From positions 11,456-75,455 of the forward strand of contig JBAZNI010000001.1 in NCBI GenBank assembly GCA_041649295.1: DNA of 64,000 bases, written 5' to 3'. Within the stretch, counting starts at the first letter, position 1; every line of letters begins with the position of its first letter. Made by a program: the position numbers and the translations under genes. Below the pieces are notes generated by a model. It did not search any database and was not told the DNA's origin. It was given only the letters and a program-made list of their open reading frames with translations. This document shows positions 5,632-55,987 of this stretch, one piece after another. Source of the DNA: Candidatus Pacearchaeota archaeon. GTDB taxonomy: Archaea; Nanobdellota; Nanobdellia; Pacearchaeales; GW2011-AR1.

Positions 5632-5694
5632 TCGCCAGCTACCTAAGTTTTCTTTGACTCTAAGAACTTTATTTTTCTAAAAGAAAGTTGTTAA

Positions 5695-5712
5695 CGCCGA
5701 CGCCCTGTCCGG
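5695..5712 (-). repeat. duplicate 2 of the tRNA-Ser 3' end
   Basis: cgccgacgccctgtccgg is identical to 5614-5631 and shares cgccgacgccc with the real tRNA 3' end at 5767-5777. Confidence 0.7.
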
Positions 5713-5766
5713 CTCGTCGTCTAGATGATATTCACAGCATAATCAACTTTCAGTTGACTATGAATA

Positions 5767-5960
5767 CGCCGACGCCCGGAATCGAACCGGGGGGCCCCGG
5801 AGGGCTCTGGTATCTTGAGTTTCACTTTCTCTCCAAGGAGGGGTGTGTGAGAGCCAGGAGAATCTATGATTCTCTGGCCCAGAGAACATGTTTGTTCTCT
5901 AGGGGGAACTACGTTCCCTTCATTCTCAAGCCAGATGCAATACCACTATGCGACGTCGGC
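5767..5960 (-). tRNA. tRNA-Ser (anticodon UGA) with a ~113-nt intron in the anticodon loop
   Basis: Folded by hand. Acceptor GCCGACG/CGTCGGC with discriminator G; D arm GCA-TAGTGGTAT-TGC; anticodon stem TCTGG/CCAGA with loop CTTGAG.A. Long variable arm GCCC-TCCG-GGGC; T arm CCCGG-TTCGATT-CCGGG. Exon 1 is about 5925-5960 and exon 2 about 5767-5811. Intron sequence CTCAAG pairs with the anticodon-loop CTTGAG, as expected around a bulge-helix-bulge site. No CCA is encoded. Confidence 0.75.
5835..5929. repeat. three-hairpin structured element, copy A (inside the tRNA-Ser intron, antisense to the tRNA)
   Basis: aaggaggggtgtgtgagagcc-aggagaat(ctatg)attctctggc-ccagagaaca(tgtt)tgttctctaggg-gggaac(tac)gttccc...ttctcaa is collinear with 35796-35884 and, reverse-complemented, with 47215-47290. 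Confidence 0.7.
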
Positions 5961-16485: not shown

Positions 16486-16558
16486 TGTTTATAAATGTTT
16501 TGGCCGGGTTTCATAAGCTTTAACTTGTTACTATTTATAAGTTAATACCGATAGAAAT

Positions 16559-16567
16559 GTTTATAAA
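16559..16567 (+). promoter_or_regulatory. TATA-box-like element for the DGR target gene
   Basis: tttataaat lies 22 nt upstream of the ATG at 16590, which argues that the track start at 16557 is too early. Confidence 0.45.
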
Positions 16568-16589
16568 TATATATTTTCTAGAAAAAGTT

Positions 16590-17396
16590 ATGGTAAAATT
16601 AATTCCAAGAGAAATAAAAGAAGCAAATTGGCCAGAAGCAAGAGAATTAAATAATGAAGAACAGCAAAATTATGGGTCTGCTGTTGCTGGATTTACTTCA
16701 AAAACAGCAAGAGATATTTTAGGAAAGGAATCAACATTATTTAGAATTTTATTATTAAACAAAATTGGAATAAGAACCGGAACAATTCCCGAATTAGATT
16801 TGCTTTGGCATAATACTCCAAATTTTATAAAAGGGCATTATTGTGACTCAAGAGAAGTTGTTTTAAGAAGTGCAGAAGATCCTTATAAACCTAATGTCCA
16901 AATTGCAAAAGACTTGGCTAAATTAGCTGAAGTGCATACACTAACAACTCCCTTGATATTAAAAGGTTTGATTCCTGTTGAAACAGATGATGAAAACTAT
17001 GCTCAATATTGCATGAGACTTGATAGAGGAGATAATTTTGAGGTTATTCCCGCTCCCGACTTTTCATTTAAAAATGATCGAAGAAAATTAAAAGCAATTA
17101 ATCCAGACTATACTATTGAGTGGTGTGAAGCTGAAGAAGAAGGAACAAGAACATTTTATGCAAAGAATGGTGGAGTTTCGTGGGTGTGCCTGCGTGACTC
17201 CAATGTCGACTCCGATTGGAGCGATTTTGATGACTCTAGTAGCAGCGGCAGGGTGGTTGTTGTCGACGCCGAAGGCGTCGTGCCGAAAAATTTAAGCAAT
17301 TACATGAATAGGTTAAAAGAACAAAAAGCAGCCCAAATTGCAGAAATTGAAGCAAGATATCAAAAGGCATGTAATTTAATGTATGGAAAAAAATAA
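16590..17396 (+). CDS. DGR variable (target) protein, no signal peptide, VR near the C-terminus
   Basis: VR encodes GVSWVCLRDSNVDSDWSDFDDSSSSGRVV, whereas TR in the same frame reads IVSRANLNDSNVNSNWSDFDNSNSNGRMA (AAY Asn codons). The GG.SW....R....GxRVV pattern resembles C-type-lectin/FGE-like DGR scaffolds. A 46-aa helical-looking tail follows the VR. Confidence 0.8.
   Translation: MVKLIPREIKEANWPEARELNNEEQQNYGSAVAGFTSKTARDILGKESTLFRILLLNKIGIRTGTIPELDLLWHNTPNFIKGHYCDSREVVLRSAEDPYKPNVQIAKDLAKLAEVHTLTTPLILKGLIPVETDDENYAQYCMRLDRGDNFEVIPAPDFSFKNDRRKLKAINPDYTIEWCEAEEEGTRTFYAKNGGVSWVCLRDSNVDSDWSDFDDSSSSGRVVVVDAEGVVPKNLSNYMNRLKEQKAAQIAEIEARYQKACNLMYGKK
17174..17256 (+). repeat. DGR variable repeat (VR)
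   Basis: Ungapped 83-nt hand alignment to 17560-17642 gives 14 mismatches. In 12 of them TR has A and VR has another base; in none does VR have A against a non-A in TR. Confidence 0.8.
17264..17280 (+). promoter_or_regulatory. GC-rich hairpin cgacgcc-GAA-ggcgtcg just 3' of VR (candidate DGR target-recognition hairpin)
   Basis: Perfect 7-bp stem with a GAA loop, starting 8 nt after the VR/TR homology ends. No equivalent follows TR. Confidence 0.5.
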
Positions 17397-17559
17397 AAAG
17401 GTAACTTTAATCCTAAGATTCCTAGCCAATTATGGTTAGGCCACAAGCCATTTAATAGTGCTTTTTAAAAGCCATGAAATTCAACCGCAACAATTAGTAG
17501 TTATGATATGAATGCGAAACTTGAAGTGGTGGTGATTTACTTTTAATTAATTGGCTAAT

Positions 17560-17642
17560 AGTTTCGAGGGCGAACCTGAATGACTCCAATGTCAACTCCA
17601 ATTGGAGCGATTTTGATAACTCGAATAGCAACGGCAGAATGG
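17560..17642 (+). repeat. DGR template repeat (TR)
   Basis: Non-coding copy of VR, 22 nt upstream of the RT start codon. It is rich in AAC/AAT triplets in the VR reading frame. Confidence 0.8.
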
Positions 17643-17664
17643 CTTAACAATTGGTTAGTTTATA

Positions 17665-18717
17665 ATGAAAACTTATAAAAATCTTTACCCGCAAATTTAC
17701 AATCTATCTAATTTAATTCTTGCTTGGAGAGAAGCAAGAAAAGGCAAAACTAAAAAACCTTATGTAATAGAATTTGAAAAAGATACAATTGGAAACTTAT
17801 TAGCCTTGCAGGAAGAATTAAAAAATCAAACTTACTCTCCAAAGCCATTGGTAACTTTTATTTTGCGAGACCCAAAAACACGCAAAATCTCTAAAGCAGA
17901 TTTTAGAGACAGAATAGTCCATCATGCCATTGTAAGAATTTTAGAGCCAATTTTTGACAAAACTTTCATTTATGATTCTTGTGCAAATAGAAAAAGAAAA
18001 GGAAATCTATTTGCAATTAAAAGATTTAAGAAATTTTTAAAAAAGGTTTCAAGAAATGGAAAAACTAATGGTTGGTTTAATGAAAATCAGGTAAAAGGAT
18101 ATTGTTTCAAAGCAGACATAAAACATTATTTTGAGGAAGTTAATCATGGAATTCTTTTAGATATAATTCAAAAAAAGGTAAAAGACGAACAAACTATTTG
18201 GTTAATAGAGCAGATTATAAAAAATTATGATAATAAAGAAAAAGGAATGCCCTTGGGAAATTTAACATCACAATTTTTTGCAAATGTTTATCTTAATGAC
18301 TTAGATTATTTTGTTAAGCATAAGTTAAAAGCAAAGTATTATATTCGATATGTTGATGACTTTGTCTTGTTGAGCAGTTCTAAAGTTCAATTAAAATTAT
18401 GGATGGGAGATATCGAACATTTTTTAATAGATAAGTTAACCCTCGAATTACATAAACAAAAATCAAAGATTACCTCCCTATCAAGAGGAATAGACTTTGT
18501 TGGTTTTAGAAACTTTTATTATTATAGATTAGTCAGAACAAGAAATATTAGGAACATACGAAATAAAATTAATGATTATAAAAAGTTTAAAATTCCTTAT
18601 GTTAACATATTGGATAGTTTTCAAGGATGGCAGGCATATGCAATGTGGGCAGATGCTTATAGATTGAGAGAGAATCTTTTAAAACAAATAATTTTAAATA
18701 CTCCCCCATCTCCATAA
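17665..18717 (+). CDS. DGR-type reverse transcriptase
   Basis: 350 aa. RT motifs are PKPLVTFILRDPKTRKISKADFRDRIVHHAI, FKADIKHYF, MPLGNLTSQFFANVYLNDLD (the GxxxSQ hallmark of DGR RTs) and YIRYVDDF. There is no maturase or endonuclease tail. Confidence 0.88.
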   Translation: MKTYKNLYPQIYNLSNLILAWREARKGKTKKPYVIEFEKDTIGNLLALQEELKNQTYSPKPLVTFILRDPKTRKISKADFRDRIVHHAIVRILEPIFDKTFIYDSCANRKRKGNLFAIKRFKKFLKKVSRNGKTNGWFNENQVKGYCFKADIKHYFEEVNHGILLDIIQKKVKDEQTIWLIEQIIKNYDNKEKGMPLGNLTSQFFANVYLNDLDYFVKHKLKAKYYIRYVDDFVLLSSSKVQLKLWMGDIEHFLIDKLTLELHKQKSKITSLSRGIDFVGFRNFYYYRLVRTRNIRNIRNKINDYKKFKIPYVNILDSFQGWQAYAMWADAYRLRENLLKQIILNTPPSP

Positions 18718-19462: not shown

Positions 19463-19503
19463 ATTAGATACTGAAAGTGTGAGAAATCCCCAGGAGGTTT
19501 TCA

Positions 19504-20232
19504 ATGATAATTAATCTTTTAGTAGAAGGTGGTGCTATGGCTCCAGGTCCTGCACTTGCACAGAAACTTGGTCCAATGGGGATAAATATGGGAAAGGTTA
19601 TTTCTGAAATTAACAAAGCAACTTCAGGATTCAAGGGAATAAAAGTCCCTGTTGATTTGAATGTAGACCCTGCAACAAAAGAATTTACAATAATAGTCAA
19701 ATCCCCCCCTGTTTCAGAATTAATAAAAAAAGAGATGAAGATAGAAAAAGGAAGCGGGGACCACAAAAATTTACAGGCAGGGAATATTGCAATTGAGCAG
19801 ATTATACTTATTGCAAAAACAAAACTTCCAGACATGTTAGAAAAAGATTTGAAAGCAGCAGTACGTTCTGTGATAGGAACATGCGTCAGTCTAGGTGTTC
19901 TTATTGAGAATAAACCTGCGAAAGAAATAGAGCAGGAAATTACTGACGGAAAATATGATAAAGAAATAAAATCTGAAAAATCAGAAGTTTCCCCTGAGAA
20001 AAAGAAAGAACTAGATTTATTCTTTGCAGCTCTTCGTAAAAAACAAGAAGCTAAGATTAAAGAAGCTGAAGAAGCTAAAGCAGCAGAAGCTAAGCCTGAA
20101 GAAGCTAAGCCTGAAGAAGCTAAAGCAGCAGAAGCTAAAACCCCTGCTAAAGCTGGTGCTAAAGCAGAACCTAAGAAAGCAGAAGCAAAGAAACCCGAAG
20201 CTAAAAAATCAGGGGATGCAAAGAAAAAATAA
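19504..20232 (+). CDS. rpl11: 50S ribosomal protein uL11 with a ~90-aa Lys/Ala/Glu-rich C-terminal extension
   Basis: The uL11 core (LVEGGAMAPGPALAQKLGPMGINMGKV...PPVSELIKKE...GTCVSLGV) is followed by KEAEEAKAAEAKPEEAKPEEAKAAEAK...KKPEAKKSGDAKKK. Confidence 0.9.
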   Translation: MIINLLVEGGAMAPGPALAQKLGPMGINMGKVISEINKATSGFKGIKVPVDLNVDPATKEFTIIVKSPPVSELIKKEMKIEKGSGDHKNLQAGNIAIEQIILIAKTKLPDMLEKDLKAAVRSVIGTCVSLGVLIENKPAKEIEQEITDGKYDKEIKSEKSEVSPEKKKELDLFFAALRKKQEAKIKEAEEAKAAEAKPEEAKPEEAKAAEAKTPAKAGAKAEPKKAEAKKPEAKKSGDAKKK

Positions 20233-20245
20233 TAGAGTTTTTGAT

Positions 20246-23200
20246 CTATCTCATTGGCCAATATCTGCAAGTTGAGAATACGCATTGAGATAATTGTTGT
20301 ATATCTAGTGCGTTAAACTGCTGGTCATTATTTGTATCTCCACAAGGGTATCCTATTATTGTTGCCTTACCTTCTATAAGTAATCCAATTATGCTTGCAT
20401 CTAATGCATCAACATACCCATCCTGATTTAAGTCTCCGACCCTTTTGTCAGTATGGCATTTGCAATCTGCTTCACAATTATTTTTTGTTTCTTCTCTCTG
20501 GCAAAATCCATTGTTGCATGTATCCGGAATTACTAATTTATCTATTTTAATGATTAATATTTTTCTAAAAAATATATCTCTTTCAATACCTATAAGTTTT
20601 ATATTAATCGGGGCGATATTTTGATTGATCTCTCTACATCCTTCTTTAGAGAGCCAAAAAGTTACGTTTTTATCATTGGTCGGGTTTTTTATATCAATCA
20701 GTGCTCTTTTACCTGCGATATTAATCTTTTTTCCTAAAATTTCATAATCCTTTCTATTAACATTTATAACTTTCTTTCTTCCTTCAATTAGTTTAATATT
20801 AAAAGGCAAACTATCATTTTCAGATAGGGCAATAGACTTAACAATAAATTTTTCATCAGGTACAGAGTATCCAACCCATTCCCCATTAGCAAACTGAATA
20901 TCTCCCAACCCATCATTATCAATATCCTTTATGACAAATTCTGCAATATATGAAGGAAAAGAACTGCCAGAAGCAATATTATCATATTGAGGTATAGCTA
21001 TAATTCTTGGCATTTCATTTACCGGTATTTCTCCAATTTTGATAAAATCATTATCATAAATATAGACCCCCAATTTTATATCTGGATAGGTTATTCCATA
21101 TATATTTAAAAAATCTTGCGACATTGAGAAAGGAACCCCTTTATCAAATTCTTGGATAATAAATCCTGTTTTTTGGTCGGGCAGTATTTTATTAGAATAT
21201 CCCCATAGATAAGAGTTATTTAAAATTGCAAGTTCAGTACCATCACTTTCATTAAGAGAATGAATTGTCCAATCTCCAGATAATATTAAAGCTTTGTTTT
21301 TACATACACTCCATTCAGGATAGTAATCTGGGCAATCAAGTACTGCTCTGCACCCAGGTTCTCCCCTGCGAGTATAAAGTTTATACTGTTCTATTAAACA
21401 CGCATTAAAATTCTCTTCTCTTAATAAAAATCTACTGAATATAATTGCATCAGTATTATTTAATTTTATCCTTGAGTCACTAAATCTATGTATTTGCCCA
21501 TTTGTAAAATTCCCTATCCGTTCAACAGGAGGGTTATTTTCATATAACCTGTTTATTTCTTGAAATTTAGTGTTTTCATAGGAGAAAAATTTAGCCCATT
21601 TAACTCTTCTAGAACTTAAGTTATCATCAGACTCAATAACTCCCACATAATAAACAGCATTTCCCTCCCCCCCGACAGGAGAGCCCGCAACAAAAACATC
21701 TCTTATTTTACCGCTGTCCGTTTTATAGATAGAGTGTGTCCCATAATTCCTTCCAGAAGAAGAATCGCTGTTTGTATTGTCGGAAATTTTTTCAATATCA
21801 TATTCTAACTTGTTTAATACTTTCCCATCAAATCCAGAAATAATAATCTGCTTTCTGTGATAAATTAAATTAATATCTTCCCAACCATCATTATTAAAAT
21901 CATATAAATACGTCCCAATTTCTTTGAATCCATAAGGGGTTAATGTACCATCGTCTCTTAACCCCTGAGTGAGATTTATCTCCATAAAATTGGGACCACA
22001 TCTTCCATTATTTTTAGTCCCGGGTTTAAATAAGCAAATATATCCCCATAATACTTTCCCAAACACCCCATTACCTAATGCAGTAGTTGAATCTCCGTCA
22101 CTTGCAGGAACTAAAAACGGATATTCTTTATTATTTGGTCCACTTAGATACCCAATATGCCCCCATCTTGAAGCGCCTTCTTCTATAATTGGTCCGTATG
22201 TTTTTGCAACTACCTTTTTTGAAGAAATATCAATAATTGCAACTGCATTTTTTCTTGAGCTTAAATTATTATATTCACAATATTCCACTGCAATTTCAGA
22301 ATTACTATCCCCAAAAAAATTACCTATAGCTTCAATATTTCTCCCAATAGATTTATCAGAACATACTTTCCCAGAAGTTTCACTTATAATAATTTCAGAA
22401 GCAATTTGCCCATTATCTATTATTAAGCACAATTTATTTAAATCATTCGTACAGTAGTCAATTAAAAACAGAGAATTGGAGAAGGAGGTGTTAACAAATT
22501 TGTCTGTTTTTTTACATAATTTATCATTTGATTCACAGATAAAAGAATAAGAATATAAATTATTTACAGAAAAAAATTCTTTTGAATAAGTATCATAAAA
22601 ATTAAACCAAAAAATACCATGACTATTATCTATGTTTGTTTCTATGCAATTGCCTTCAAAAATATCGCATATCTGTGAGTTATCATAATTTATGAAGGTA
22701 GATTCTACACTTGCAAGATTTATTCTGTTGAAATCGGTGTTTGCTTTAAATATAAACCCCCCAAAAATGGTTTTTGCATCAAATTCAATTGTATAATCTG
22801 TATTCTTTTCACAATTAATTTTTGAACTAAGAACTAATGGGAAGTAGTTGGATTTCTCTGTTAATATTCTTACCCCATCAGAATAAGGTTTATCAAGTAT
22901 AGCCTGGGTTGGGTGGCTATCAGAAATTCCCGGTCCAACATAATAATCTAAAAGCGGATAGGAATAACTATGATAAAACCATCTTTGAATATTATACCAG
23001 TTATAATCTTCGATAACAATTTCATTGTTAATTACACTTTTTTTTATATTATCAAATTCTGGAATACTTAAAACAGGAGTCCCATCTTTTGTTTTTAAAT
23101 TTTTTAGAGTAAAATAAGAAATACCTGGATTTTCATATGGATAATTATTATAAACAGAAATCGCAATTTTTTCATTATCCCCACTATTAAATTTTAATTC

Positions 23201-23344
23201 ATAATGTTTCCATTCATTGTCTATTTCAGAGGTGCTGACCGTTTTTCCACTTATTTTTGTTTCATAAATTATTAACAAAATAGCAAAGAATATAACGATG
23301 GTAAGAATAAATAAAATAATAATTTCTCTCCTCTTTTTATTCAT
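20246..23344 (-). CDS. large membrane-anchored surface protein with FG-GAP/VCBS-like repeats and a C-terminal dockerin-like module
   Basis: 1032 aa with an N-terminal TM anchor. It has GNFFGDSNSEIAV, DFNNDGWEDI and DIDNDGLGDI calcium-loop-like repeats. The C-terminal GDLNQDGYVDALDASII ... GDTNNDQQFNALDIQQL forms a duplicated dockerin-type EF-hand pair. Confidence 0.7.
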   Translation of the reverse strand: MNKKRREIIILFILTIVIFFAILLIIYETKISGKTVSTSEIDNEWKHYELKFNSGDNEKIAISVYNNYPYENPGISYFTLKNLKTKDGTPVLSIPEFDNIKKSVINNEIVIEDYNWYNIQRWFYHSYSYPLLDYYVGPGISDSHPTQAILDKPYSDGVRILTEKSNYFPLVLSSKINCEKNTDYTIEFDAKTIFGGFIFKANTDFNRINLASVESTFINYDNSQICDIFEGNCIETNIDNSHGIFWFNFYDTYSKEFFSVNNLYSYSFICESNDKLCKKTDKFVNTSFSNSLFLIDYCTNDLNKLCLIIDNGQIASEIIISETSGKVCSDKSIGRNIEAIGNFFGDSNSEIAVEYCEYNNLSSRKNAVAIIDISSKKVVAKTYGPIIEEGASRWGHIGYLSGPNNKEYPFLVPASDGDSTTALGNGVFGKVLWGYICLFKPGTKNNGRCGPNFMEINLTQGLRDDGTLTPYGFKEIGTYLYDFNNDGWEDINLIYHRKQIIISGFDGKVLNKLEYDIEKISDNTNSDSSSGRNYGTHSIYKTDSGKIRDVFVAGSPVGGEGNAVYYVGVIESDDNLSSRRVKWAKFFSYENTKFQEINRLYENNPPVERIGNFTNGQIHRFSDSRIKLNNTDAIIFSRFLLREENFNACLIEQYKLYTRRGEPGCRAVLDCPDYYPEWSVCKNKALILSGDWTIHSLNESDGTELAILNNSYLWGYSNKILPDQKTGFIIQEFDKGVPFSMSQDFLNIYGITYPDIKLGVYIYDNDFIKIGEIPVNEMPRIIAIPQYDNIASGSSFPSYIAEFVIKDIDNDGLGDIQFANGEWVGYSVPDEKFIVKSIALSENDSLPFNIKLIEGRKKVINVNRKDYEILGKKINIAGKRALIDIKNPTNDKNVTFWLSKEGCREINQNIAPINIKLIGIERDIFFRKILIIKIDKLVIPDTCNNGFCQREETKNNCEADCKCHTDKRVGDLNQDGYVDALDASIIGLLIEGKATIIGYPCGDTNNDQQFNALDIQQLSQCVFSTCRYWPMR

Positions 23345-40016: not shown

Positions 40017-40361
40017 TTATTCTAATCCCAAACTTATTTTTATAGCGAAATCTACTTTATTCATAGAATAAAAATCTAAAGAACTTATTCTTTTAATAAT
40101 TCTTGATTTATCAATTGTCCTTATTTGATTAAGCATAATTGTTGAATCTTTATTTAAATGAGAATCTTGTTTAGAGATAAAGACATTGGTCGGATACTCT
40201 TTTTCAGGAACTTTTGAAGTAATTGCAGCCACAATTGTTACTGGAGAAAATTTATTAGAAATATCATTCTGAATCACCAAACATGGCCTTATTCCTCCTT
40301 GTTCACTTCCTTTAACAGGTTCAAAATCAACGAGTAAAATCTCACCTCTTTTTATTTCCAT
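40017..40361 (-). CDS. mazF: MazF/PemK-family endoribonuclease toxin
   Basis: 114 aa; RGEILLVDFEPVKGSEQGGIRPCLVIQND...VTIVAAITSK is the canonical MazF pattern. Confidence 0.9.
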   Translation of the reverse strand: MEIKRGEILLVDFEPVKGSEQGGIRPCLVIQNDISNKFSPVTIVAAITSKVPEKEYPTNVFISKQDSHLNKDSTIMLNQIRTIDKSRIIKRISSLDFYSMNKVDFAIKISLGLE

Positions 40362-40638
40362 TTTTAATTTTCTTTATATCTTTAAGATATTTTTCTGGGA
40401 TTAAATCTTTACATTCCCAATCCTTAAAATCTTCTATTGCTTCAAATTCTCTTGTAATCTTCAAGCTTTCTTCGGCCATTACCTTGCAGCCTTCAATAAG
40501 TAATTGCTCTTGTTCTCTTTTGCATTTTTCTGCAATTTTCATTAGGCTTACAATAACCTCTTCGTAAGTTTCTTTATTGGATTTTAATCTATCCAAAGCG
40601 CTTTTCACATTTTCATTTAGTTGAATTGTTGTTACCAT
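40342..40638 (-). CDS. putative RHH-type antitoxin partner of MazF
   Basis: 98 aa, overlapping the mazF start by 20 nt. The N-terminal TTIQLNENVKSALDRLKSNKETYEEVIVSLM looks like strand-helix-helix. Confidence 0.55.
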   Translation of the reverse strand: MVTTIQLNENVKSALDRLKSNKETYEEVIVSLMKIAEKCKREQEQLLIEGCKVMAEESLKITREFEAIEDFKDWECKDLIPEKYLKDIKKIKNGNKKR

Positions 40639-55292: not shown

Positions 55293-55619
55293 TCAAAAAA
55301 TAATAATTCCTCTTTCTTTTGCTTCTTTTGCAATTGTAACCATCTTAGACAATCGGTTAAACTCTTTCGGAGTATAGCAAATAACCTCCAAATCAATATA
55401 TTCATCCCAATATCCAATAACTTCAGACATTCTTTTTCTAAATGGGACCCCTTTAAAATCTTTTGAGATTAATATTAAATCCACATCGCTGTTAAATACC
55501 CAATCTCCTCTCGCTCTGCTTCCAAATAAGATAGCTCTGTCTATTTTAAATTTTTTATTTACTTTTTTAAGATATTCGTTTAGCAATTTAATTACTCTTT
55601 CATTTGTGTACTTATCCAT
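55293..55619 (-). CDS. minimal nucleotidyltransferase (MNT) domain protein
   Basis: 108 aa with the LFGSRARGDWVFNSDVDLILIS (GS-x10-DxD) motif. Confidence 0.85.
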   Translation of the reverse strand: MDKYTNERVIKLLNEYLKKVNKKFKIDRAILFGSRARGDWVFNSDVDLILISKDFKGVPFRKRMSEVIGYWDEYIDLEVICYTPKEFNRLSKMVTIAKEAKERGIIIF

Positions 55620-55987
55620 TCAATTACCTCCTTCGTGTTATTTAGTAGTTTTAGACTTTCTTTTTTACTATAAAGTTTATAAGGTATTTCTCCACTTGCA
55701 TCAGCATATCTTGTAGCATAATATTCTGGAGATATATTTTTTAAAGTTTCTTCATACCTCTTTGGGATTCCTGCAATTCTTCCCAATTTAATTAAGGAGT
55801 GGATAAACGGATTTTCTTTATTATACAAAAGAATATACGATTTAAGTGCTTTTTCTAAAGATTGCTGGCACCAAAAAACAGAAGCATAATAATCCCCTGA
55901 TTTTAAACTGTTCTCAGCAGTTCTAAGGTCAGCTTTTGCCTGTTCCCAGTTGTTTTTTATTTCTTCTCTCATAATGCTTGTTAGCAA
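55592..55987 (-). CDS. HEPN domain protein (pairs with MNT)
   Basis: 131 aa, overlapping the MNT gene start. It has a helical HEPN pattern (AENSLKSGDYYASVFWCQQSLEKALKSYIL ... YATRYAD). Confidence 0.8.
   Translation of the reverse strand: MLTSIMREEIKNNWEQAKADLRTAENSLKSGDYYASVFWCQQSLEKALKSYILLYNKENPFIHSLIKLGRIAGIPKRYEETLKNISPEYYATRYADASGEIPYKLYSKKESLKLLNNTKEVIEWISTQMKE

Follow-up and report, generated by a model that had tools for sequence, protein, structure and literature searches.

To our knowledge, diversity-generating retroelements (DGRs) constitute the only natural system of targeted protein hypermutation in prokaryotes, and they are under development as in vivo diversification tools. 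The one DGR that we know to be understood mechanistically needs the protein Avd and a 140-nt RNA spacer located 3′ of the template. Avd is present in about 74% of DGRs and is not universal. The survey of Wu et al., 2018 explicitly left open how Avd-less DGRs work, and the question has stood since. This question is raised by a locus in a 64-kb stretch of DNA from a Candidatus Pacearchaeota archaeon (the window; 64,000 nt of a ~565-kb genome), which is a complete DGR of a large DPANN-archaeal clade: a target gene containing a variable repeat (VR), a template repeat (TR) and a DGR-type reverse transcriptase (RT), without Avd.

16590–17396, + strand: target gene, 268 aa (open reading frame, 23 homologues, AF2 model)
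17174–17256, + strand: VR, an 83-nt ungapped match to the TR with 12 adenine-specific and 2 other mismatches
17560–17642, + strand: TR, from its ungapped alignment to the VR at an offset of 386
17665–18717, + strand: DGR-type RT, 350 aa, with LGNLTSQ and YVDD (Pfam RVT_1, 1.7e-16)

The computed ungapped alignment of VR and TR has 69 identities and 14 mismatches over 83 nt, exactly as described in an initial annotation made from the sequence alone. Twelve mismatches lie at TR adenines, where the VR has G (nine sites), T (two) or C (one). The other two are at non-adenines (TR C17571/VR T17185 and TR G17623/VR T17237), and nowhere in the 83-nt alignment is a VR adenine opposite a different TR base. 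Changes thus affect 12 of the 26 TR adenines and 2 of the 57 other TR positions (Fisher exact p = 6e-6), and 11 of the 12 changed adenines occupy the first or second position of a codon in the VR frame. Read in that frame, the TR encodes IVSRANLNDSNVNSNWSDFDNSNSNGRMA and the VR encodes GVSWVCLRDSNVDSDWSDFDDSSSSGRVVV, in agreement with the codon readings made earlier. Clade-wide, across 54 loci, TR-to-VR changes were observed at 714 of 1352 TR-A positions and 16 of 3074 non-A positions. The VR lies in the 3′ part of CDS 16590–17396, with 46 codons remaining after it, and corresponds to the hypervariable block in the protein alignment of the target family. As annotated, 22 nt separate the TR from the RT start codon (ATG at 17665), and no further VR-like copy or remote target was found on either strand of the 64-kb window. 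With all testable hallmarks of a DGR present, the core of the initial annotation, a complete DGR without Avd, stands.

The RT contains the LGNLTSQ motif reported earlier, which is of the (I/L/V)GxxxSQ type (motif 4), and the catalytic YVDD. Its best relative of solved structure is 8ub7_A, a 328-aa chain named 'Reverse transcriptase' that matches over the full length (E 1.1e-41) and that we take to be the bRT of Bordetella phage BPP-1, judging from its length of 328 aa and from the set of nine entries that includes 8ub7 and 8ub8–8ube. The PDB matches that follow, all at 2e-19 or weaker, are to group II or 'retron-type' RTs. Database matches therefore suggest that the RT falls in the DGR clade, closest to bRT. 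NCBIfam models for group II, retron and Drt RTs all scored far below their cut-offs, with 132.9 bits for TIGR04416 (group II; cut-off 300) and 45.4 bits for NF038233 (retron St85 RT; cut-off 235). We ruled out a group II intron based on the TIGR04416 score, the lack of any Rfam group II intron match in the window, and an RT of only 350 aa. Similarly, a retron was ruled out by the RT family, by the existence of a VR with adenine-specific changes, and by the lack of any conserved neighbor other than the VR-bearing target.

Non-adenine differences between TR and VR are found at 3.5% of positions in the window (2 in 57) versus 0.5% clade-wide, suggesting that this copy may lack recent homing. Taken further, the same excess could mean that the cassette is a decaying, inactive DGR whose adenine-biased differences record past activity only, and we found no VR variants of the same strain that would speak for ongoing change: the sole other contig with an identical RT is identical over 5053 bp, and the 90% cluster of the target holds a start-codon variant only. 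We nonetheless consider decay improbable, since neither the target ORF nor the RT ORF is disrupted, the RT retains both YVDD and LGNLTSQ, and the RNA features described below (an RT-16 score among the best of its family, the clamp, the hairpin and the IMH-like end) are all preserved.

Neither in the window nor at distances up to ~6 kb from 80 related RTs did we find an ORF resembling bAvd/23S_rRNA_IVP, and this family did not recur among 105 small ORFs. Likewise, searching the window and 80 clade loci with an HMM of the four nearest Avd proteins returned nothing with E below 0.3. As a positive control, bAvd was found in four viral relatives, which are the closest of a more distant set. The search in the source organism spanned the 64-kb window of the ~565-kb genome, elsewhere in which an Avd-like or other cofactor could be encoded. 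Hence, Avd is absent from the cassette as annotated; its absence is not special, however, because the whole clade shares it and because accessory-gene-free DGRs have been published, namely Architecture A DGRs without accessory genes and Lineage 3 without avd (Wu et al., 2018; PMC5758913). The locus resembles these DGRs and those of the archaeal 'clade 5' (PMC8144416) in its target-TR-RT layout without avd, in a target that lacks transmembrane segments, a signal peptide and known domains, and in its DPANN host. In those surveys, an 'Avd-independent' mechanism was proposed without an RNA component; by contrast, the locus described here has a conserved RNA and a pairing that involves the TR.

The non-coding stretch 17397–17559 had been treated as featureless, and we found no gene-like ORF of ≥30 aa between 17397 and 17664. 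This region instead holds a conserved structured RNA.

17421–17563, + strand: RT-16 RNA (Rfam RF03019), between the target stop codon and the TR (covariance model, 104.7 bits)

The window RNA is a full-length, high-scoring member of the RT-16 family, covering model positions 1–158 of 158 at 104.7 bits (gathering score 50) and scoring 120.4 bits with our own covariance model, R1. Among 79 copies, 95.5% of cells were paired, as compared to 31–48% in slid controls, and compensatory changes were observed at 20/20 pairs, with 484 double-change cells. RT-16 was detected in 77 of 80 related RT loci. It was not found even at E ≤ 1 in L022, L030 and L068, and two of the three exceptions lack upstream DNA. 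One locus, L025, holds two RT-16-TR units. In 50/57 loci, the TR start lies no more than 6 nt from the RT-16 3′ end; the median distance from that end to the RT ATG is 114 nt, and the outer core helix of RT-16, P2 (5′ strand from 17447), closes a few nucleotides before the TR starts. We conclude that the TR does not stand on its own: it continues, on the 3′ side, a conserved structured RNA that is the most informative part of the locus. RT-16 was published as an orphan motif near RT genes, one of RT-1 to RT-19, of which only RT-10 was tied to a DGR and many were speculated to take part in retrons (Weinberg et al., 2017; PMC5737381). We found no link between RT-16 and DGRs in the papers that we searched; an upstream RNA may have been noted in the supplements of Weinberg et al., 2017 or in Paul et al., 2017 (PMC5436926). 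Relative to the published motif, the present analysis places RT-16 directly 5′ of DGR TRs and adds to it a long-range helix that the Rfam model does not include.

17422–17443, + strand: clamp 5′ strand, comprising both arms of the RT-16 P1 hairpin and GCCA (pairing, MFE fold, covariation)
17640–17658, + strand: clamp 3′ strand, comprising the last 3 nt of the TR and 16 nt of spacer (pairing, MFE fold, covariation)

This helix, the clamp, encloses the RT-16 core and the TR, and is supported by covariation. Positions 17422–17431 pair with 17649–17658, and 17435–17443 with 17640–17648. The clamp is the unconstrained MFE structure of 17415–17664, at −59.6 kcal/mol versus −56.9 kcal/mol with the local P1 hairpin enforced. 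Because the MAFFT alignment A1 misaligns the variable P1 hairpin, we tested the clamp using duplex energies and an anchored synthetic alignment, A5, rather than A1 or A3. Cognate strands across loci gave a duplex energy of −25.5 kcal/mol versus −17.9 kcal/mol for non-cognate strands (0/5000 permutations), and each half of the clamp behaved in the same way when considered separately (−11.65 versus −6.52 and −14.67 versus −9.43, each 0/5000). With anchors chosen independently of pairing, 76% of positions were paired, as compared to 27–46% in slid controls. One pair is UA in 40 loci, CG in 26 and UG in 1, with none unpaired; another is GU in 36, GC in 23 and AU in 5. The clamp sets an invariant 5′-ACA-3′ (17443–17445), at the inner end of the 5′ strand and a candidate priming site, opposite an invariant 3′-UAAG-5′ (17640–17637). 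The invariant GAA at 17637–17639 precedes the 3′ strand, and GAAU varies little or not at all across 67 loci. The clamp has a competitor in the local hairpin P1 of the Rfam model; this hairpin also covaries and, in the window, is only ~3 kcal/mol less stable, suggesting that the clamp may be one of two states, or may serve another purpose. Archaeal bulge-helix-bulge processing or circularization was considered as a role for the clamp and set aside, its bulge being 3 nt in the window and of very different sizes elsewhere.

The clamp tail resembles the 3′ arm of P1, and the RT-16-TR unit moves, as shown by its presence twice in L025 and its inversion in six loci. The complementarity could then be a DNA-level direct or inverted repeat, such as a recombination or mobility site flanking the unit, rather than an RNA helix. 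We consider this very improbable: pairing survives G-U wobbles and is kept where the tail and the local 3′ arm have changed in different ways, GATTGGG and GATCAGG in L001 each pair with CCTGGTC, and the GU/GC/AU variation at a single position indicates RNA pairing, not DNA identity.

The position of the clamp also invites a regulatory or processing role rather than a catalytic one, through occlusion of the RT ribosome-binding region, a terminator or attenuator between target and RT, or the processed ends of the RNA. In the window, 6 nt lie between the clamp 3′ strand and the RT ATG, and a local hairpin that alternates with a long-range helix is a classic switch layout. The same six loci, however, have the RNA unit on the opposite strand, with no RT gene following, and they keep the clamp; moreover, the clamp takes in TR bases and the invariant ACA/GAAU juxtaposition, neither of which a translational occluder needs. 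A regulatory function is therefore, in our judgment, quite unlikely to be the explanation.

In BPP-1, the TR 3′ end pairs with spacer nucleotides 47–56, A56 primes synthesis, the first base to be copied is G117, and synthesis is halted by a duplex that lies upstream of the TR (bioRxiv 10.1101/2023.10.23.563531; the work covered Avd-containing DGRs only). The window DGR resembles BPP-1 (mtd-avd-TR-brt, with Rfam RT-10 as its RNA) in its adenine-specific TR-to-VR transfer, in its RT family (8ub7, taken as bRT, E 1e-41), in a helix directly upstream of the TR that could stop synthesis, and in a TR 3′ end that is predicted to pair with a strand ending in adenosine. Unlike BPP-1, it lacks Avd, its structured RNA is 5′ rather than 3′ of the TR and belongs to RT-16 rather than RT-10, its Sp spacer is reduced to ~22 nt, its host is a cellular archaeon rather than a phage, and its target has no recognizable C-type-lectin match and has a 46-aa helix after the VR. 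The more distant viral relatives are arranged differently from the clade. None of 17 such DGR RT loci has RT-16, even at E ≤ 1; the TR was found in 15 of the 17 and ends 112–172 nt before the RT; and in seven loci that 3′ spacer contains another Rfam RT motif (RT-14 or RT-18). Thus, the distant viral relatives bear a structured RNA 3′ of the TR, whereas the clade bears RT-16 5′ of it.

These comparisons bear on whether the clade primes as BPP-1 does, from an element 3′ of the TR that would overlap the short spacer and the 5′ end of the RT gene, leaving RT-16 as an upstream accessory only (for example, the upstream strand of a 'cPRT Stop' duplex, an RNA stabilizer or an RT-binding handle). BPP-1 requires a duplex formed by sequences on the two sides of the TR, with putative equivalents in 207 other DGRs (10.1101/2023.10.23.563531), and the clamp could be exactly such a stop duplex. 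RT-16 and RT-10, the BPP-1 RNA, both contain sarcin-ricin-like loops (PMC13085918), which fits a shared RT-binding handle, and the RT coding sequence could, in its 5′ part, overlap with an Sp-like element. By contrast, the gap between TR and RT ATG is ~22 nt, as compared to 112–172 nt in relatives, and all 22 nt are used by the clamp. Where the RNA unit is inverted, the clamp is kept although no RT gene follows. The clamp also engages the last bases of the TR, a task that falls to the primer strand in BPP-1 and not to the stop duplex. We therefore regard a canonical arrangement as unlikely, although it is the strongest of the alternatives.

The reading that we prefer, in which the clamp and RT-16 position the template from its 5′ side, would also have the cDNA guided to the VR. 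Features at the repeat ends and beyond the VR are candidates for this step.

17247–17256, + strand: IMH-like G-rich 3′ end of the VR, GGCAGGGTGG (fixed difference from the TR)
17633–17642, + strand: TR counterpart of the IMH-like end, GGCAGAATGG (comparison with the VR end)
17264–17280, + strand: GC-rich hairpin CGACGCC-GAA-GGCGTCG, 7 nt after the VR, a candidate target-recognition hairpin (seen in sequence)

The TR adenines at 17638–17639 correspond to GG in 64/64 VR copies across the clade (TR GAA, VR GGG), and the first of the two changes is synonymous in the window (AGA to AGG), pointing to a fixed nucleotide-level difference between the repeat ends rather than random mutagenesis. Downstream of the VR, a hairpin with ≥4 GC pairs within 45 nt was found in 34/54 related loci, as compared to 1% of control windows. 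A GAA loop is present in 19 of the 34, and the stems covary (GCC/GGC, GGC/GCC and CGC/GCG). Both features have parallels in BPP-1, where the G-rich VR end differs from the TR end at fixed positions (cf. IMH/IMH*) and a GC hairpin lies downstream of the VR.

Taken as a whole, a complete Avd-less DGR with an RT-16/clamp RNA and the mechanism that we infer from it is, on balance, a probable explanation of the locus. A single transcript would comprise a clamp strand, the RT-16 core, the TR and the second clamp strand. The RT would bind the RT-16 core, and the TR 3′ end would be brought to the active site beside the 2′-OH of a priming adenosine, for which A17445 and A17443 are candidates. cDNA synthesis would start at G17637 (or A17639), proceed 5′-ward through the TR with misincorporation at adenines, and stop at P2, the RT-16 helix that closes a few nucleotides upstream of the TR. 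Replacement of the VR by the cDNA would follow, with the G-rich VR end (GGG versus GAA in the TR) and the downstream hairpin as guides. The upstream RNA scaffold would take over the positioning that Avd and the downstream spacer RNA perform in canonical DGRs, suggesting a way for such elements to work without Avd. This self-priming mechanism, with an RNA permuted in the manner of a retron, is a possible account that in our view falls just short of probable. More tentative still is the specific proposal that the clade's DGR RNA is circularly permuted relative to the canonical one and operates in the manner of a retron ncRNA. The ~140-nt RT-16 scaffold 5′ of the template and the covarying clamp would then, unaided, recruit the RT, set the TR 3′ end on a priming adenosine through ACA/GAAU and stop synthesis at P2, making Avd and the 3′ spacer RNA dispensable.

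The order of structured RNA, template and RT gene is that of a retron (a1 - msr - msd - a2, then ret), in which terminal inverted repeats likewise close the unit and set the template 3′ end by a conserved purine at the inner end of the 5′ strand. This resemblance is one of possible working, not of family membership. Unlike a retron, the locus has a DGR RT (45 bits with the St85 model, against 235), no effector gene, and a template with a homologous VR that differs at adenines. A mechanistic continuum between DGRs and retrons is hinted at. The locus and its 80 relatives offer a concrete, sequence-defined candidate answer for Avd-less DGRs, consisting of an orphan Rfam RNA with strong covariation, a helix that pairs the template 3′ end, and the invariant ACA/GAAU. 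If this answer is correct, it would give the mechanism of 'Avd-independent mutagenic retrohoming' and a minimal two-component system (RT and one RNA) for targeted hypermutation. The RT-16 family would gain a function and, in passing, so would RT-14 and RT-18.

The target belongs to a conserved DPANN family and adds to the question of what ultra-small archaea diversify inside or on their cells. Its start is at 16590 (M-VKLIPRE...), because all 23 homologues begin at the equivalent site; 16557 is only the start of the longest ORF. The homologues are all unnamed or 'hypothetical', and the organism, where named, is Nanoarchaeota. Neither Pfam, NCBIfam, PADLOC nor a PDB sequence profile gave a match to the target, Pfam matched none of the 23 homologues or the 79 VR-bearing clade targets, and FGE-sulfatase and DUF1566 in particular were absent from those 79. 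The target has no signal peptide and no transmembrane-like segment (maximum KD19 1.15), as the initial annotation stated; its view of this as unusual did not hold, given that archaeal DGR targets without signal peptide, transmembrane segment or known domain are reported as typical (Roux et al., 2021; PMC8144416). The genomic setting, directly upstream of secE-spt5-rpl11, had also been singled out. We rejected synteny with secE-spt5-rpl11, ArsR and NifS as meaningful; the neighborhood is incidental, because it is conserved in 0/80 related loci. In the AF2 model (pLDDT 86.8, pTM 0.77), a helical N-terminal domain is followed by a central alpha/beta domain containing the VR, by an invariant GRVVVV motif and by a long C-terminal helix (aa 232–264). 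We predict a soluble binding protein, probably oligomeric in view of the C-terminal helix. Foldseek searches of PDB and BFVD with the model gave nothing with E below 0.2, the weak matches being crAss-like phage proteins, a tail-collar fibre protein (TM 0.28) and NK-receptor C-type lectins (E 3–6). A tail of 40–57 aa after the VR is common to 22/78 clade targets; the remainder end 1–33 aa past the VR, except for two outliers of 67 and 604 aa.

We aligned the variable repeat (VR) in the target gene without gaps to the template repeat (TR) that precedes the reverse transcriptase (RT) gene. The elements of the cassette are as follows:

16590-17396, + strand: target gene
17174-17256, + strand: VR
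17264-17280: hairpin CGACGCC-GAA-GGCGTCG, 7 nt 3' of the VR
17560-17642, + strand: TR
17665-18717, + strand: RT gene

The repeats differed at 14 of 83 nt. Twelve of these mismatches fell on TR adenines and two on other bases, with none in the reverse sense (Fisher p = 6e-6 for adenine bias; the TR contains 26 A and 57 non-A), so that computation reproduced both the coordinates and the counts of the initial annotation. Eleven of the 12 changed adenines were at codon position 1 or 2, and TR Asn codons became Cys, Arg, Asp or Ser in the VR, as had been described. No further VR copy was found in the 64-kb window. The RT (350 aa, motifs LGNLTSQ and YVDD, ATG 22 nt past the TR end) was also borne out in the sequence, and it matched Pfam RVT_1. 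Its closest solved structure, matched over the full length, was chain 8ub7_A, a 328-aa 'Reverse transcriptase' (E 1.1e-41) deposited in nine entries, including 8ub7-8ube, which we take to be the Bordetella phage bRT. Group II and 'retron-type' RT structures matched at E 2e-19 or weaker, the RT scored far under every cut-off of the NCBIfam group II, retron and Drt models, and an Rfam scan of the window detected no group II intron RNA.

We identified 267 relatives of the RT in GTDB genomes and studied the loci around the best 80 (49-72% identity), nearly all of which are hosted by Pace-, Woese- or Nanoarchaeota MAGs. TR/VR pairs were located in 54 of these loci, where changes affected 714 of 1352 TR adenines versus 16 of 3074 other bases. 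Adenines were replaced by G (519; 73%), T (167; 23%) or C (28; 4%), and the skew towards G persisted when the fixed GG of the TR end was left out; either a misincorporation bias of the RT or selection favouring Asp, Gly and Ser codons may underlie it. A GC-rich hairpin, mostly with a GAA loop, followed the VR in 34 of the 54 loci, compared with 1% of control windows. Its stems covary (GCC-GAA-GGC, GGC-GAA-GCC, CGC-GAA-GCG), indicating that the 'AEG/GEA' residues conserved after GRVVVV in the protein alignment reflect a nucleic-acid constraint. With its adenine-specific differences, a bRT-like RT and a hairpin after the VR, the locus is a complete and genuine diversity-generating retroelement (DGR), as first proposed, and it is typical of the large DPANN clade to which it belongs. 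The MAGs behind eight related loci (L001, L015, L052, L055, L064, L068, L069 and L079) bear the labels 'bacterium', 'Paceibacterota' or 'Methanosarcinales'. These loci carry the archaeal-type RT and, except for L068, the RT-16 RNA described below, and L015 also holds close homologues of window genes; the odd labels suggest mislabelling or mis-binning rather than transfer.

The features that the initial annotation had singled out as unusual are already known or incidental. The absence of Avd was confirmed across the 64 kb of source genome searched: no bAvd/23S_rRNA_IVP family recurred in a set of 105 small ORFs drawn from both the window and the surroundings of related RTs, and an HMM of the four closest Avd proteins matched no six-frame ORF in the window or the 80 loci. 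The same procedure readily detected bAvd beside the four closest viral relatives. However, DGRs without accessory genes ('Architecture A') and a lineage that lacks avd have been described, in whose genomes avd was sought elsewhere without success, leading to the proposal of an unknown Avd-independent mechanism (Wu et al., 2018; PMC5758913). The secE-spt5-rpl11 neighbourhood was shared by none of the 80 related loci, and is therefore incidental. We observed no TM-like segment in the window target or any of 79 clade targets, and no domain match in any library searched. Although this agrees with the cytoplasmic appearance noted initially, archaeal DGR targets typically lack TM segments, signal peptides and conserved domains (Roux et al., 2021; PMC8144416). 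The 46-aa tail after the VR was confidently predicted to form a long helix (aa 232-264; AF2 model), and it marks a subclass: tails of 40-57 aa occur in 22 of 78 clade targets, whereas in most of the remainder the protein stops no more than about 20 aa after the VR.

The true start of the target is 16590, the start point of all homologues. The target family is small, with 24 clusters at 90% identity, and of the 80 loci, 27 hold members detected by its profile. Its alignment is marked by the C-terminal helix, by a hypervariable block and by GRVVVV, which is invariant. The AF2 model (pLDDT 86.8, pTM 0.77) had no significant structural neighbour in PDB or BFVD; the best non-significant matches were crAss-like phage proteins, a tail-collar fibre protein and NK-receptor C-type lectins. 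The 'GG.SW...GRVVV' of the target resembles lectin-type VRs, and a divergent C-type-lectin fold is plausible.

The DNA that separates the target stop codon from the TR, initially described simply as non-coding, in fact encodes a structured RNA:

17421-17563: Rfam RT-16 (RF03019), full-length model match, 104.7 bits (gathering score 50)

RT-16 belongs to a set of 19 orphan 'RT' motifs, of which only RT-10 was tied to a DGR (that of BPP-1), a retron role being speculated for many (Weinberg et al., 2017; PMC5737381). A literature search found no paper connecting RT-16 with DGRs. A covariance model built from 19 copies recognised RT-16 at 77 of the 80 related loci as well as in the window; of the three loci without a match, two lack upstream DNA. 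Pairing was observed in 95.5% of RT-16 cells, versus 31-48% when partners were slid, and compensatory changes occurred at 20 of 20 pairs, values reached by none of 500 shuffles. The RNA ended within 6 nt of the TR in 50 of 57 loci, at a median of 114 nt from the RT ATG, equal to the TR plus about 22 nt. One locus, L025, contains two RT-16 units (2670-2888 and 5671-5896); its stretch 5746-5871 recurs at 2734-2859 with only three differences, and this repeat is a duplicated RT-16-TR unit, not a VR. In six loci (L041, L042, L043, L047, L050 and L057) the RT-16-TR unit lies on the strand opposite the RT. Five of these have a longer called RT ORF (465-575 aa), and in L047 none was called; they represent a different cassette architecture within the RT-16 RNA family.

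The centroid fold of the window RNA indicated that P1, the 5' hairpin of RT-16, can open and pair with sequence 3' of the TR. This long-range clamp comprises 19 bp and a 3-nt bulge:

17422-17431 with 17649-17658: clamp pairing
17435-17443 with 17640-17648: clamp pairing

The unconstrained minimum-energy fold of RNA 17415-17664 contained the clamp (-59.6 kcal/mol, versus -56.9 with local P1 enforced); P1, which also covaries, competes with it. Across 72 loci, cognate duplexes of the 5' and 3' segments were more stable than non-cognate ones (-25.5 versus -17.9 kcal/mol; 0 of 5000 permutations), and cognate pairing was also better for each half separately. We also anchored one strand by its CM column and the other by a GAAU motif, so that neither anchor depended on pairing. 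The inner helix was then 76% paired and scored 0.53 for covariation, whereas slid controls reached 27-46% and at most 0.25. One column pair was UA in 40 cases, CG in 26 and UG in one, and never unpaired. Complementarity of this kind could instead stem from a DNA repeat. However, the tail and the local 3' arm differ, yet both still pair with the 5' arm, and G-U wobbles are present, indicating that the clamp is an RNA helix. A regulatory switch is another reading of a helix that competes with P1, but both clamp halves are kept in the six opposite-strand loci, where no RT gene lies downstream of the unit, arguing against a device that controls RT translation.

The base of the clamp is marked by invariant nucleotides. 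The 5' strand terminates in ACA, with A as the last paired base followed by CA in 56 of 62 loci; in an anchored synthetic alignment, the C and second A were invariant. The 3' strand starts with U, preceded by GAA, and in the same alignment AAU was invariant and the G nearly so. The adenine pair at the TR end was GG in 64 of 64 VR copies. The first of these two changes is synonymous in the window (AGA to AGG), which together with the uniform GG indicates a fixed nucleotide-level difference between TR and VR ends rather than random mutagenesis, like IMH* versus IMH of BPP-1. TR/VR homology ended 1-2 nt beyond these adenines in 30 of 49 loci. In BPP-1, spacer nt 47-56 form a helix with the 3' end of the TR, synthesis is primed by the 2'-OH of A56 and begins by copying G117, and a duplex directly upstream of the TR halts it (10.1101/2023.10.23.563531). 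The window has the same geometry: ACA (17443-17445) lies opposite GAAU (17637-17640), and the outer core helix of RT-16, P2, is closed a few nt before the TR begins, where it could halt synthesis.

We next compared the clade with 17 viral DGR RT loci (25-42% identity), in none of which RT-16 was detected. Where a TR was found (15 of 17), it ended 112-172 nt before the RT, and in seven loci the 3' spacer (Sp) contained Rfam RT-14 or RT-18; the four closest relatives also encode bAvd. Thus the viral relatives have RNA 3' of the TR, whereas in the RT-16 clade the structured RNA precedes the TR, the 3' spacer is almost gone and Avd is absent. The stretches L083:2830-2979, L085:2927-3003, L087:2921-2993, L094:2302-2382, L095:2923-3000, L096:2923-3000 and L097:2911-2990 are probably Sp-type DGR RNAs of their own lineages. 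Retron ncRNAs have the order a1-msr-msd-a2-ret, which is also that of the RT-16 clade (clamp strand, structured RNA, template, clamp strand, RT gene), although the window RT is not a retron RT by its structure matches or the NCBIfam models.

We tentatively propose, giving the mechanism as a whole slightly less than an even chance, that an RT-16-TR RNA scaffold substitutes for Avd and the spacer. RT-16 and the TR would form a single transcript, whose RT-16 core would be bound by the RT; a sarcin-ricin-like loop occurs in both RT-16 and RT-10 (PMC13085918). The clamp would bring the TR 3' end to a candidate priming adenosine, cDNA, with its 5' end predicted opposite G17637 or A17639, would be copied through the TR with adenine misincorporation and halt at P2, giving a predicted 3' end at about 17556-17560, and the GGG end and the hairpin would then guide this cDNA as it takes the place of the VR. 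Besides the DNA repeat and the regulatory switch considered above, rival readings are that priming is canonical, from a 3' element that overlaps the RT gene, or that the element is dead; the two non-adenine TR/VR differences of this copy also count as a caveat. The value of the locus lies in its RT-16/TR architecture, which no paper that we found describes and which makes 'Avd-independent retrohoming' a specific, testable model.

Elsewhere in the window, a PemK/MazF-like protein with a small partner (40017-40638, - strand) and a nucleotidyltransferase with a HEPN protein (55293-55972, - strand) look like toxin-antitoxin modules, judged from their sequences and a family list in which families are not assigned to individual ORFs. 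Ribosomal protein L11 (19504-20232, + strand; 242 aa) is extended at its C terminus by ~90 aa with abundant Lys, Ala, Glu and Pro (…EAKAAEAKPEEAKPEEAKAAEAK…KKPEAKKSGDAKKK), and the ORF opposite its gene (19464-20285) is likely spurious. The protein encoded just downstream, at 20246-23344 (- strand), is 1032 aa long; a hydrophobic segment lies at its N terminus and a dockerin type I domain (E 1e-6) at its C terminus.
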